Source: Chrysomallon squamiferum
Taxonomy: Eukaryota; Animalia; Mollusca
Direction: 5' to 3'
Length of the DNA stretch: 64,000 nucleotides
Assembly (NCBI GenBank): GCA_012295275.1
Contig: CM022672.1
Span: 33,356,001 to 33,420,000 of the forward strand
Position 1 is the stretch's first letter. Every line of letters begins with the position of its first letter. A program made the translations under genes and the position numbers. The notes beneath the pieces were generated by a model. It was given only the letters and a program-made list of their open reading frames with translations. It was not told the origin of the DNA and made no database searches. This document shows positions 32,117 to 64,000 of this stretch, one piece after another.

Positions 32117-33796
32117 ATGTTGGTTTTCGCTGTCCTAACGTTTTCTGCGTTTCTTTACACTTCAGATTCTTTCTGTCTGATGGACAGGTTAAAAATCAAC
32201 ATGACAGGTACGTTAATCATTTCTGTAGTCCGACATTCAAACCAAGGTGTCTTTACAACAAACGTATGTTATTAGTAGTATAGCTTATCTTCTTTGTCTT
32301 CGTTAATTAATTAATATTTATATATATGTCAGCTTGTAAGGAAACTTATGTCTGGTTTTTTTTTTTTTTTTTTTTTTTAGTAAATATCTAGTTAAAACTA
32401 GGGAATTTTATGAATGTGACATTAAAAACCTGGCTGACAGGTGGAAAGAGGACACCGAGAAGAATCATGACTGTAACATATATTTCATATTACCTGTTTT
32501 CAAAAGGGCAGAAACGATAAGGTTGAACATTTACTAAAAGGTGCTGTTTGTATATGTTTACTGATGTCAAAAGAAAGTGAATCTACATTTGTTTATTATT
32601 GTTAAATAAAAAAAAAAGAGAAACCAATGATGATTTTATTTGTTTATTGGCGCTAAAAGGTAATGTTTGTATTTGTTTATTATTCGTAAATGTTATCAGC
32701 TCGTTTTATTAACAATTTAGGCAATTTATATAAATGTATGTGTGTGTGGGTAGTAAAAGATATATATCTATATGTATGTGTGTGTGTATATATATAATAT
32801 ATCCCTCAGCAACAAACACGTACAACACACAGACAGTCAAACACGCACGCACACGCACACACACACACACACACACACAAACAAATGCTATCACTTGTAT
32901 CTAGGACGCGATAAGAAAGAAAAAAGATTAAATATGTTCTTAGGGAGCAAAGATTAACATAGTTTCAGTCATATTATCATAATATGAGAGTGTACTTAAA
33001 TTGGACATTTACTAAATTATTGCTGTTGTTGTAGGTGACGGACAGATGAAAACGTACTGCCAGTTTGACGGTGTTGTGATGTCACTGGGAGATTCTGTTA
33101 AATTCGAGAATAAATGTGTAGAGTGTGAATGTTCATATCATGGACTTTCATGTTGCGGGTATGTATTGTCCTGTATTGGTCAAACAAATAAACTCATTTT
33201 AAATTTCTAAAAACAAATGATGATCAAGATAACGAAGATTATGATGATGACGATGATGATGGTCATGATGATGATTCTTATCATTATTATTATTATTATT
33301 ATTATTATTATTATTATTATTATTATTATTATTATTTATTATTATTATTATTATTTAGTTTTATTATTATTATTATATCTTATGTATTCACTATCACCTC
33401 GAAGATAAACAGGACCAGTCCCATCGTAATGACACTCCCTCTATCAGATGGCAACACCTTCTTGAAAAAAACACACAAAAAAACCAGCCTCCATTCGTTA
33501 TGGTCTTCATATGAAACGTGACCCCTAAAACTACTACTACTACTACTATTATCACCATCATCATCATTATTGTTATTATTATAATAATAATAATAATTAT
33601 TATTATTATTATTATTATTATTGTTGTTGTTGTTGTTGTTGTTGTTGTTGTTATTGTCGATGTACACAGATATGGTATCAGTGCGGGAGTAATTCAACCT
33701 CCAAACGGATGCATCGTCAAAGCAGACGGTTGCAAAGCTCTGCTGGTGAAGGCTGACGATACGTCACGTGACTGCTCGACGGGAGAGTTACTATGA
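32117..33796 (+). CDS. Beta-microseminoprotein (MSMB/PSP94)-like secreted protein, subtype B, intact, 113 aa; exons 32117-32207, 33035-33158, 33670-33796
   Basis: GT-AG introns in phases 1 and 2. Protein MLVFAVLTFSAFLYTSDSFCLMDRLKINMTGDGQMKTYCQFDGVVMSLGDSVKFENKCVECECSYHGLSCCGYGISAGVIQPPNGCIVKADGCKALLVKADDTSRDCSTGELL has a signal peptide and 10 Cys in the C..C..CxxCxC..CC..C..C..C pattern of MSMB. AATAAA at 33842-33847. Confidence 0.9.
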
Positions 33797-36700
33797 AAGT
33801 GAAAGAACTTTTTCGTATCTGTAAAACGAAAGTAAAACTGAAATAAAATATTTTGCTAGCTGAATTTTTTTAACTCATGTAGTCATTTTGTTCAAGCTTA
33901 TTAATATTCAGTCGGGGGGTATGTTTGATCATAGAATTTTTTTAATTTCTTTTTATTATGTCAAGCCAGGATGATTTGACCATATCATTTCACGTTGTAT
34001 ATTCTAATCTTTTTTGTTATAAAAGAAATGATTTCCTAGTTTACAGTTATACTGTTCCTGTATCTGGAATCTGCTGTTGGTGTCTAAAGGTTTGATGTTC
34101 CTTATTTAGTGCTGATAAATGAAGTTTAAGACACACATACATATACTGAGAAACTGCAGGTGACACCTCCTCACCCTTCTGCATACAGAGATGTAGAGAT
34201 ATATATTTTTTTAAATTAATATATTTTTGTGTATTGTAATTTAAATTATACGTGTGTGAATCTCTCCGGTTCGCTACCTTAGCAAACATCTTTCTGATAC
34301 AGTTTATGGTAACTTACGGTATATTTTTCCAAGTTGACTAAGTTAGAAATGTCACATAGGTATAGAAGAATGTTTCTGTTCGTTCTTCTCAGTTTGGACA
34401 TTTAGAATGTGTATAACGTATGAGTTTGTGTCTGTGTTTCAATGATTATATGTGCATATTTACGTATATGTGCTTGTTTGACGTGTATTTTTATGCACAA
34501 TCCATACACACACCGACAGACAAACACATAGACATACACACACACACAGTCATATGAAGTATATATACTTTGCTTATTCTATCACCCATCGGCTTTTCTT
34601 GAATGGTTTGTTGTATAACGATTTATCATCCCATCACGAGTTCCTGCACGAGTGATGTGTCTCTATAGCAATCTATATGTGTTATATATACACATTTCCA
34701 TCTGTCCGTGCGATTTCTGTCTGTTTCTCTATCTGCCTTTCTTTTTCCTTTCTGTCTATCTAGCCGCCTGCATAACTAACTACCTGTCTATAATCTCTAT
34801 CTTTCTGTATGTGTGTCTGAGTATCAATCTTTTTTATTGTTCTTTGTTTCGTTCCTTCTTTTAACTTTTTTCTCATTTGTTTCTTTCTGTCTTGTGTAAG
34901 TGTATATAAATCGATATTTCAGTCTGCATACTGTGTACATGTATGTACTGTATTTGTTTATGACTCAGGGTTCGTTAAATAAAAATAATAATATAAATAC
35001 TACGTAAAGAAACGAAATACTATTTAAAAATAGACATTCAGTAACAGATGTCATTTTATGACTAAATAAATCTAAATAAATTAAAAAATAAATAAATAAA
35101 TAAACACAAACATAGAAATAAAAATTAAACAGAAAAATAAAGAGAAGAAAAATAAGCGTCGATTTTACCCCTGTTTATTTATTTACGTATTCATTCAGTT
35201 AGATAGTTAATAAATTATTAGTATTAACTAAATTTGAGAAAAAAAAAAAAAAAAAAAAAAAAAATCTTACAAAAAAAAAAACAACAACGAATAAATAAAT
35301 AAATAAATAAATAAATAAATAAATAAATAAATAAGAAATAATGATCTAACAAAGAAGCAAATAAATAAACACAGTATATTTAAATTCAGTTATACATTAG
35401 TACCTAGATAACTCGATAGCTAATATGAATCATTTTTAACACCGGTAGCAATAAGAGTTGACTTATAAAAATAAAACTGTCGTGTCGCGATGTGTCAGAC
35501 GACTGACAAATATTATACAACAATGCGTACACCATTTCTCGTATAGGTGACAAACCATTCTGCTGAGGAAAGAGTTCAAGTGTCAGTTGCAAGGGGCGAT
35601 CTGCCATTTCTAAGATAATAGGCCATTTCATGAAAACGTTCGTATCTGCTGTCAGAAAAACTGATGATGTTTATAGAGGCATTATTTCTTTTGATTAAAA
35701 TACAGAGTTTGATAGGTTTTCTTCAACTACATCGTTATGTTAAACATTTTATTAACATAGGTGGTGATAACCCACCAGGCTCCAGGGTAACGGATCCTGT
35801 GGGTCATGATCTCAAACAGTAAAACTACCTAGAAACAATATACATCAAACTTACTACTAAATTGTATGAGAAGACACCTCTCACTTTCTTCCGTATTTTC
35901 TTTTTTATACGACATACACCACTCTAGTCTATCATCAAGTAAAGTAATACCAGTAATTAAGAATCTAACAGTTATCTGTTCGTTTGAAATGCAGTGGCAT
36001 CCAATCAGCCACCTGACCATGGGACACCATAGTAGTCTCCTACAGAAAATGGCTTATTGGTCACCAACTCCACATTCATTATGTTCGCCCAGTGTACCAG
36101 CGAACCATATGGCTGATCGAAGAAAACTGCATTAAGAAGTGAACAGAAATTTCTAACAAAAACCCAACCCTTTACAGCATCTATGAAATATGTGTTATCA
36201 CCTCAATCGATCCCAGTTTCTCCTATCATACCAGATCCCGCTGCAAAATGCTCATGAAAGCAAGTCTAAAGTTTCAAGTTATCTCCGTGACCTCCGTGAT
36301 CATCAAACGGAACCGCTGTCTTCTCCAACCGCCCGCTTCCCGCTTCTCCCTCCATACCCAGAACCAGAGCCTGGACTCAAACCTGATTGAGTTTCTGAGG
36401 ACGTTGGTGAATCCCGAGGAACCAAAGAGAAAAGAGAAACCATTAGGCGGGTCAAATTTCAAAGGTGCTTTAGTTCCTCAAACAAAACTGATCGCTATTT
36501 AATGTAACTTCAAAATTTAAAAACTCGGTTTTGTGTATATTCGTGTAAAAGAACTAATTATTAGCAGATGTTGACAGTCAGAAACAGATTATTTACATAT
36601 TATTACTATCAATACATGTTTAACATCTGTCGTTACTTCATCTTTTCTTTATTTCGTATACAGAGGCTAGATTATCTCAAGAATATACAAATAAAAATTA

Positions 36701-37460
36701 ATACTTTAATAATATAAACATAGTTAGTTAAAAGAACTGTGTCTAATGAAATACAGTTTCATAGATAACCGGGTTTTACGTTAAACAAAGACAAGGTCGT
36801 CTATCTTCCTCACCACTCTACTCTGTTTCATGTTTCACGCAAAGAGAATTGGCTCTGTCTTTCCCAGGTGCAGAGACAATTTATTATCAATTAGCAACGC
36901 AATGTTCATTCTAGTCCATTTTAAAGTTATTGCTGAATTTCTGTTGTGTTTCTCTCTAGCAATAGCAGTGCAGTCGTCGGTATAGAATTATAATTTACCC
37001 TAGACTTCTAATGGGATATCGTTGTGTGTGAGTATATATATATGTATGTGTATATTATATGTATGTAGGTATTTATGTATGTATGCATCAATATATGTAT
37101 GTGTGTGTGTATATATATATATATATATATATATATAATATATATTGATACACACAGACAAACACAAACACACATAAATTCATACACATATGTACATTTA
37201 TATACATAAATACATACGTACATCCATAAATATGTATGTGTGTGTGAATATATACATATACATCAACATATACGCATACGCACTCGTTCTACGTGGATAA
37301 TGATAATAATAACAGAGCACATGGTATTAGAAGAAGTAGAAAAAGAAGAAGAAGAAGAAATGGAAGAAGCATAAGAAGAAAACGAATAAGAAAAAAAGAG
37401 AAAGAAAAAAAAAAAAAAAAAAAAAAAAAAAAAAACAGAAGAGCAAGAAACAGTAATAAC

Positions 37461-63230: not shown

Positions 63231-63519
63231 CTGTGTACAACGACAATAACAACAGCACAAAAAACAACAACAACAACAACAATAATAATAATAATAATAA
63301 TAATCATAATAAGAACAATAATGACGATGATGGTGATAATAGTAGTAGTAGTAGTAGTAGTAGTAGAAGTAGTAGTAGTAATGGTGATGGCAGTAGTGTT
63401 AGTAATATGTACGCGCACACACACAGACACACACACATACACGGGTTTTGCAGTTATGAAAATTGAAAAGTAGCTTCACTTTCAACTGGTTTATAAAAAG
63501 TAAAAAAAAAATGTTTCAG

Positions 63520-63965
63520 TGGTCACGTTTCATATGAAGAGGATAACGAATGGAGGCTGTTTTTTTTTTTTGTTTTTTGTTTTCCAGAAGATGTTGCCGT
63601 CTGATGGAGGGTGTGTCATTATGATGGGAGTGGTCCATTGGGCACGTGAGGACACCACAGGTCATCGTTAACGAAAGGTTAAGGGAAAACGGTTACATCG
63701 ACATTCTGCTTCCTTTGATTTTTCTGACCCAGCCACGTGATATCATTTATCAGCATGACAGTGCCAAAGCCCATACAGCCAGAATCGTAGACATCTTCGT
63801 TAGTGTAGCAACGTCAACGTGGTGTAATCATTGCCTGCTTAACAGAGATGTCGCAAGGAAAACACCAGTGGGATGTCATTACTCGCCGTGTGCGACAACA
63901 TCCTCAGGCGTCAACTTGTATTTTACACAGGCTTTGTTGCAGGGGTTTGTGGGTTTTTTAAATTA
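63520..63965 (+). mobile_element. Tc1 transposase remnant in intron 2 of the last MSMB-like copy
   Basis: KMLPSDGGCVIMMG (cf. GGGSVMVWG), RTPQVIVNERL...YIDIL and IIYQHDSAKAHTARIV (cf. FQxDNAxxHxAR). Confidence 0.72.
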
Positions 63966-64000
63966 TCATCATCAATAAAGTCATTATCATTATTATTATC

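Follow-up and report, generated by a model that had tools for sequence, protein, structure and literature searches.

Beta-microseminoprotein (MSMB)-like genes are described in bivalves, gastropods, cephalopods and a rotifer, and lineage-specific tandem clusters of the MSMB/PSP94 family are reported, in the accessible portions of the sources, for opossum (14), lizard (7), tammar, chicken, marmoset, habu and sea cucumber (11) (further sources on the family: PMC4200219, PMC10036341, PMC9759900, PMC7150969, PMC2746217, PMC13228809, PMC4500399, bioRxiv 10.1101/712687). The available text of Frankenberg et al. states that molluscan MSMB sequences are not all orthologous. Among molluscs, the contact pheromone beta-MSP of the squid Loligo (Cummins et al. 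2011), compared here through its descriptions in citing papers, is an MSMB-like secreted protein. We analyzed a 64,000-nucleotide stretch of the Chrysomallon squamiferum genome (assembly GCA_012295275.1, contig CM022672.1, positions 33,356,001 to 33,420,000; the window hereafter) that contains a cluster of gene units whose products, by their sequences and predicted folds, almost certainly belong to this family. We consider the account as a whole, eight duplicated and rearranged units with one intact MSMB gene that likely encodes a reproductive signal, to be reasonably probable.

Scanning all six frames and searching the nucleotide sequence with exon seeds, we identified 19 full-length exon copies (85-130 bp each) spanning 32117-63230: one of type 1C, three 1A, two 1B, three 2A, three 2B, five 3B and two 3C. 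Beyond these there are three 5' stubs of exon 1B, at 34354-34395 (+), where the stub is fused to the upstream sequence of an A-type gene at a deletion junction, at 43622-43663 (−) and at 54072-54113 (+). An exon-2 profile matched weakly at two more places, 51676-51773 (+) and ~60500-60625 (−), which align to each other and to exon 2B as DNA and carry a frameshift and stops. Because this decayed exon 2 sits 0.6 kb behind each full exon 1B, 1B would be a member of a third, decayed lineage, giving three predicted gene lineages in the cluster. The exon-1 types 1A, 1B and 1C are homologous, every pair scoring above all 200 shuffles (two pairs narrowly). Profile searches found zero exon copies in the window left of 32 kb. 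The motif of six cysteines (Cys) in exon 2 occurs five times in the window, always in mapped exons, and in none of 100 block shuffles; the 3-Cys motif of exon 3 is unspecific alone (8 matches, 6 in mapped exons; shuffle mean 1.6, maximum 5). The first-pass annotation of this DNA had described at least eight copies or fragments with exons of 85-130 bp, and the map agrees with both statements: the 19 copies and three stubs form eight units, G1 to G8. Its six exon types become eight (1A, 1B, 1C, 2A, 2B, the decayed exon 2 behind 1B, 3B and 3C), since exon 1 of G1 differs from 1B and a decayed exon 2 follows both full copies of 1B, and its two subtypes become three lineages.

Three exons in order are present in 4 of the 8 units, an open frame in 3, and four consensus-like splice sites in one. 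G1 is the single fully intact gene in the cluster, G5 and G6 are doubtful, and the other five units are truncated or frameshifted. All three exons of G1 lie on the plus strand. Exon 1 (1C, 32117-32207) encodes the signal peptide and the first Cys and ends at the phase-1 donor GTACGT; exon 2 (2B, 33035-33158) encodes six Cys and the remainder of the N-terminal domain and has the donor GTATGT; exon 3 (3B, 33670-33796) encodes three Cys, the C-terminal domain and the stop, with AATAAA 46 nt past it. Both donors are consensus-like, the acceptors are AG, and joining the exons by their coordinates yields 113 amino acids.

The two doubtful units have open frames. G5 (50941-53560, +) combines 1B (50941-51052, weak donor GTCAAC), 2B (52823-52946) and 3B (53434-53560), a rearrangement having joined 1B to 2B-3B. 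Its intron 1 contains the decayed exon 2 at 51676-51773, likely the original partner of exon 1B, and an inverted orphan exon 3C (51972-52101, −) that lacks an acceptor and has a premature stop. The 120-amino-acid frame of G5 requires an upstream ATG and is open only when the decayed exon is skipped; its inclusion leads to a stop at 38 amino acids. G6 (58731-60279, +) has the sole complete A-type exon set, 1A (58731-58815), 2A (59435-59555) and 3C (60150-60279), with a frame of 111 amino acids. In place of the GTAAGT of G2 and G4, its first donor is TTAAGT. We rejected G6 as an intact gene because this donor has TT in place of GT and the four in-frame alternative GT/GC donors, two of which preserve ten Cys, are far from consensus. 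The exon 2A donor is the unusual GTTATT in all three copies (37461, 48485, 59555). A hydrophobic read-through past exon 2A was considered as a membrane anchor and rejected, as it derives from T-rich repeats and is probably due to chance. The products of 111-120 amino acids have a hydrophobic N-terminus ahead of the first mature Cys (Kyte-Doolittle 9-residue maximum 2.7-3.7), and the signal-peptide call is one of hydropathy alone. G1, G5 and G6 each have ten mature Cys, and G6 carries an eleventh within the signal peptide. A and B products are 38-40% identical and G1 and G5 78%. The products of 111-113 amino acids with signal peptide and ten Cys proposed at first pass are thus found in G1 and G6, while G5 is longer and only three of the eight units are open.

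The spacing of the ten mature Cys in G1, G5 and G6 is that of the family. The gaps are 18,18,2,1,6,0,14,6,13 in G1 and G5 and 14,19,2,1,6,0,14,7,13 in G6, as compared to 9,17,2,1,6,0,13,8,13 given for chicken MSMB3 in the accessible text of PMC8167871; the first gap is longer here (14-18 vs 9). The coding introns are in phase 1 and then phase 2, the second lying directly after the Cys-Cys pair. Phases calculated from the exon sizes of marmoset MSMB are the same, and MSMP is described as having three coding exons. The cluster shares with vertebrate MSMB/PSP94, MSMP and USM (PF05825) a predicted signal peptide, ten Cys with matching gaps, two predicted domains split by the last intron and intron phases 1 and 2, and with MSMP the number of coding exons, three. 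It differs from vertebrate MSMB in that the start codon lies within the signal-peptide exon and single exons score under the Pfam cut-off.

Database and fold searches used single exons as queries, and the Pfam gathering cut-off for PF05825 is 22 bits. PSP94 was the top Pfam family for all four exon-2A queries (E 0.017-0.00056), with a best score of 20.9 bits. For the same queries VWC2L_1st came below PSP94 (E 0.048-0.58), and there was no match to the single-VWC (SVWC) family. An Atlas search with exon 2B placed MSMB first at 0.83, a lead only, and a tick CirpT cluster second. The exon 2B model (predicted local distance difference test score, pLDDT, 84.5) is all beta with five strands; exon 1, which holds strand 1, lies outside the model. 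In VIA-align, residues 8-43 of chicken MSMB3 ranked first of 48,161 chains for this model (Z 4.3, root-mean-square deviation, rmsd, 1.8), tied with fibronectin type I, and in Foldseek MSMB3 had the lowest rmsd listed (1.5). The predicted fold of exon 2B would therefore match the fibronectin-I/VWC/MSMB group. The exon 3B model has a pLDDT of 75 (the other four models, 44-59). Foldseek placed human PSP94, snake SSP-2 and chicken MSMB3 at ranks 1, 2 and 5 of 58 for it, and it aligns to PSP94 residues 48-88 (Z 2.5), with two human MSMB chains the only ones to exceed Z 2. The strong point of the family assignment is that two exons folded apart appear, in their models, to land on the correct halves of one small family in the correct order.

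Several results weigh against this assignment. Exons 1, 2B, 3B and 3C had zero Pfam matches, no individual score is significant, and PSP94 stays below its cut-off. Exon 3C gave no family in the Atlas search. The exon 2 Foldseek E-values are 0.1-0.3, with fibronectin I and VWC chains above MSMB3 (11th), those of exon 3 are 3-8 (best 3.4), and the training of AlphaFold included MSMB structures. Elsewhere, an exon-2 alignment against longer proteins found none of 13 candidates homologous, homologue searches of metagenome contigs found 0 of 277 and 0 of 128 stretches, and none of five proteins matched NCBIfam. The Protein Data Bank sequence search returned nothing for exon 2B alone or an exon-3 profile; an exon-2 profile gave chance-level rows, the sole family match being SSP-2, third at E 0.26. 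The cluster might encode SVWC or fibronectin-I-like proteins that merely resemble MSMB: the model of exon 2 by itself resembles fibronectin I and VWC modules, and the weak VWC2L match (E 0.048) and the second place of CirpT point the same way. We regard this as very improbable, since exon 3 discriminates against VWC and fibronectin I by matching a C-terminal domain unique to MSMB, all ten-Cys gaps fit MSMB3, and PSP94 stands above VWC2L with no SVWC match. The MSMB assignment made at first pass is upheld by Cys spacing, intron phases, the sub-threshold PSP94 match (E 0.00056) and two separate fold searches. Of the checks proposed with it, the profile comparison favors PSP94 for 2A over SVWC, under the cut-off and with no Pfam match for 2B, 3B or 3C, and the structural comparison, made with exons folded separately, puts PSP94 top for exon 3B and, in VIA-align, MSMB3 first for exon 2B in a tie with fibronectin I.

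The remaining units are incomplete. G2 (37461-38280, −) retains 1A (38196-38280, donor intact) and 2A (37461-37581) and is without exon 3, the unit being cut by a block junction near 37060. G3 (45214-46032, −) has 2B (45909-46032) and 3B (45214-45339), in which a 1-bp deletion costs the last Cys, and is without exon 1. G4 (47764-49217, +) is a chimeric pseudogene of 1A (47764-47848, with a hypervariable 3' patch), 2A (48382-48485, with a 17-bp deletion) and 3B (49091-49217, acceptor AG lost). G7 (60500-61350, −) consists of 1B (61239-61350) and the decayed exon 2 at ~60500-60625, without exon 3. G8 is an orphan 3B (63104-63230, −) with frame and acceptor intact, and its homology to B-type intron 2 stops near 63636.

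Self-comparison of the window revealed repeated blocks of 0.4-3.7 kb that occur in direct as well as inverted orientation, among them the inverted pairs 37060-40757 and 56319-59965, and 48817-52101 and 60150-63492. Non-coding divergence between blocks is ~3-5% with simple repeats masked and up to 8% over short stretches. In all five cases exon 3B is followed 0.5-1.8 kb downstream by 1B or a 1B stub, and the pair of 1B and its decayed exon stands tail to tail with 3C. From this layout we infer an ancestral three-gene unit B>, C>, <A, in which B and C stood head to tail and A tail to tail, that would have been copied repeatedly in both orientations. The block duplications would date to 3-5% sequence divergence, and breakpoints within introns would have left most copies dead, with orphan exons and the G4 and G5 chimeras. 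Birth-and-death turnover of gene copies is highly probable. The expanding birth-and-death family proposed at first pass stands as to birth and death, with more death than implied; as to expansion, one intact gene of eight fits recent turnover.

Much of the copy number could instead be an artefact of assembly, in which haplotypes or wrongly joined repeats came to lie next to each other and the TT donor of G6 is a base error. The window has 13% simple repeats and a palindromic layout, and its 200-N gap shows a draft assembly, but the cluster contains no N, the non-coding divergence between copies is 3-7% after repeat masking and there are five distinct 3B copies, and we find an artefact improbable.

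Repeats are also found next to the A-type genes. At 23915-26153, 8 kb left of the cluster, are pieces 78-91% identical to the repeat found upstream of the A-type gene at 35-36.8 kb, 40.7-43 kb and 54.8-56.3 kb. This repeat is probably a dispersed mobile element and may seed rearrangements. Two decayed open reading frames (ORFs) lie at 63625-63975 (+) and 29501-29854 (−), the first adjoining the point where G8 intron 2 homology stops. Both had zero Pfam or NCBIfam families, and they contain a motif that we take to recall Tc1/mariner transposases.

The described MSMB/USMH clusters of opossum, lizard and marmoset and the habu small serum protein (SSP) array resemble the locus in tandem duplication, fragments and pseudogenes, and, in the accessible accounts, in exons that diverge faster than introns while Cys are kept; inversion also occurs in the Protobothrops array. 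These systems are from a different phylum, and here intron junctions yield cross-lineage exon chimeras (G4, G5). The sea cucumber PSP94-like cluster of 11 tandem genes (PMC5638244) is likewise, in the text available, an invertebrate, lineage-specific tandem array that its Cys pattern reveals. Its genes are described as highly expressed in gut regeneration, whereas the copies in the C. squamiferum window are mostly broken and lie in inverted blocks.

Across all copies, the mature-protein codons show 37 non-synonymous and 4 synonymous changes, a ratio 2.7 times the neutral one (one-sided p 0.03). One of the 37 is a nonsense change, located in the orphan 3C, and none falls on a Cys (P ~0.01). Signal-peptide codons have 5 non-synonymous and 0 synonymous changes (p 0.25). 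Non-synonymous divergence (pN) exceeds flanking divergence between G1 and G5 (p 0.03) and in exon 1A of G4 and G6 (p 0.0001). The G4/G6 difference is one patch right after the first Cys, with 10 of 28 bases changed as compared to 12 of 408 in the next intron. The residue after the last Cys differs among all four intact 3B copies (S, F, L and W). As read from the substitutions, the genes were constrained until recently and some sites have probably diversified, and we rate diversifying selection as moderately probable.

Against diversification stand the limits of the test, which is small and marginal, pools pseudogenes and uses a majority-codon reference instead of a tree, and the finding that pN is above flanking divergence in only two of six comparisons. 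The tail beyond the last Cys has a non-significant excess (4 of 10 changes; p 0.06, post hoc). Gene conversion over a short stretch, with an unseen paralogue as donor, could account for the G4 patch; a search for such a donor within the window found none. Exons of G2 and G6 are more alike than their flanks (1/206 vs 43/1258, p 0.01), which argues for constraint and not diversification in this pair. In exon 1B, pN is about equal to synonymous divergence (pS). Together with the five truncated or frameshifted units, the bad donors of two more and block junctions inside introns, the equality in exon 1B and the four pairwise tests without excess over flanks would fit a hotspot of rearrangement that surrounds the one or two genes that work, whose extras were dead on arrival and whose amino-acid excess reflects small numbers, gene conversion and neutral drift. 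The counts of 0 of 37 changes at Cys and only 4 synonymous changes out of 41 are not what neutral decay predicts, G2 and G6 exons are conserved relative to their flanks, and we think a hotspot of this kind rather unlikely.

As we read it, G1 likely encodes a secreted two-domain MSMB/PSP94-family protein with five disulfides. Secretion would follow from family membership, and the predicted pairing 1-7, 2-5, 3-9, 4-6 and 8-10 is that reported in the accessible text for chicken MSMB3 (PMC8167871). By analogy with the family, a protein partner would likely bind along the edge of the first and last beta-strands; the N- and C-terminal strands of PSP94 are described as its CRISP-binding surface and dimer edge (PMC7150914, PMC8857485, PMC3268785, in the portions available). 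The most variable spots in the cluster adjoin the first and last Cys, which fits the idea of a binding edge without proving it.

The function is most likely that of a reproductive or egg-coat signal, a role that we rank first among those of the family while holding it tentatively. The ranking is due to three published descriptions: the female glands of squid produce beta-MSP, which is located in the egg coat and is a contact pheromone; a starfish MSMB is enriched in testis; and a snail MSP increases when maturation is abnormal. With the same family and history, the product could instead serve in immunity or against microbes at a mucosal or egg surface, with pathogens driving its amino-acid changes. 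Some MSMBs reportedly act on Candida and bacteria, chicken MSMB3 is described as a cationic egg antibacterial (PMC8167871), a clam MSMB transcript is reported to drop after Vibrio challenge (PMC4234419), and the A-type product has a net charge of +5 after residue 20. The intact G1 is slightly acidic (net −3), however, and the window is without immune gene neighbors, and we regard an antimicrobial role as unlikely. The proteins might also neutralize CAP/CRISP or venom proteins that the animal itself secretes, as snake SSPs do, or take part in wound repair, as in the sea cucumber cluster. Among the fold matches of exon 3, SSP-2 ranks second, and it is the sole family match of the exon-2 profile (E 0.26); habu SSP genes are described as a tandem array with accelerated evolution, and sea cucumber PSP94-like genes are reported to rise after evisceration (PMC5638244). 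With no partner gene in the window and a host not known as venomous, we assign these roles a small probability. A more specific version of the reproductive reading is that the genes encode egg-borne pheromones of a cephalopod, which sexual selection diversifies at the partner-binding edge, and that phase-compatible exon swapping, with three interchangeable exon-1 types carrying the first strand, makes new specificities and G5 is an expressed chimera; we think this quite unlikely.

The window is ~30% GC with 13% simple repeats, a composition that suggests a cephalopod host only as a guess. A multi-exon sacsin-like gene at 8512-13081 (−; Pfam SACS, best E 2.4e-18) runs into the 200-N gap at 8312-8511. 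In a search of proteins of 903-2575 amino acids, its large exon had 18 matches, 12 of the 13 named ones and all of the top eight being molluscan, at 32-36% identity. At 240-605 (−), a single-exon ORF encodes a signal peptide and, between KR and the C-terminal LLRY-G-R, a peptide of 38 residues. It had no Pfam match and its homologue search was empty; its sequence fits the description of NKY neuropeptides, and it is likely an NKY precursor. On these neighboring genes a molluscan host is likely. Adjoining the N gap, ~3 kb of degenerate short-period tandem repeat (5200-8310) is almost CpG-free. A separate direct-repeat family (0.4-2.2 kb, 75-93% identity) without MSMB exons occupies 17167-21766 and 27088-28562.

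In published literature, no molluscan tandem MSMB cluster or exon-swapping layout appeared among the matches listed. From its sequence the locus appears to behave like known MSMB clusters and to carry the testable features of the family, and the molluscan cluster and the exon-swapping layout would be what is new. The locus is likely an unannotated molluscan addition to a family whose only characterized invertebrate member is the squid aggression pheromone, and it would extend the vertebrate pattern of tandem turnover, fast amino-acid change and fixed Cys to a protostome. If the host were a cephalopod and the paralogues were made in reproductive glands, pheromone specificity would be testable with a few recombinant variants.

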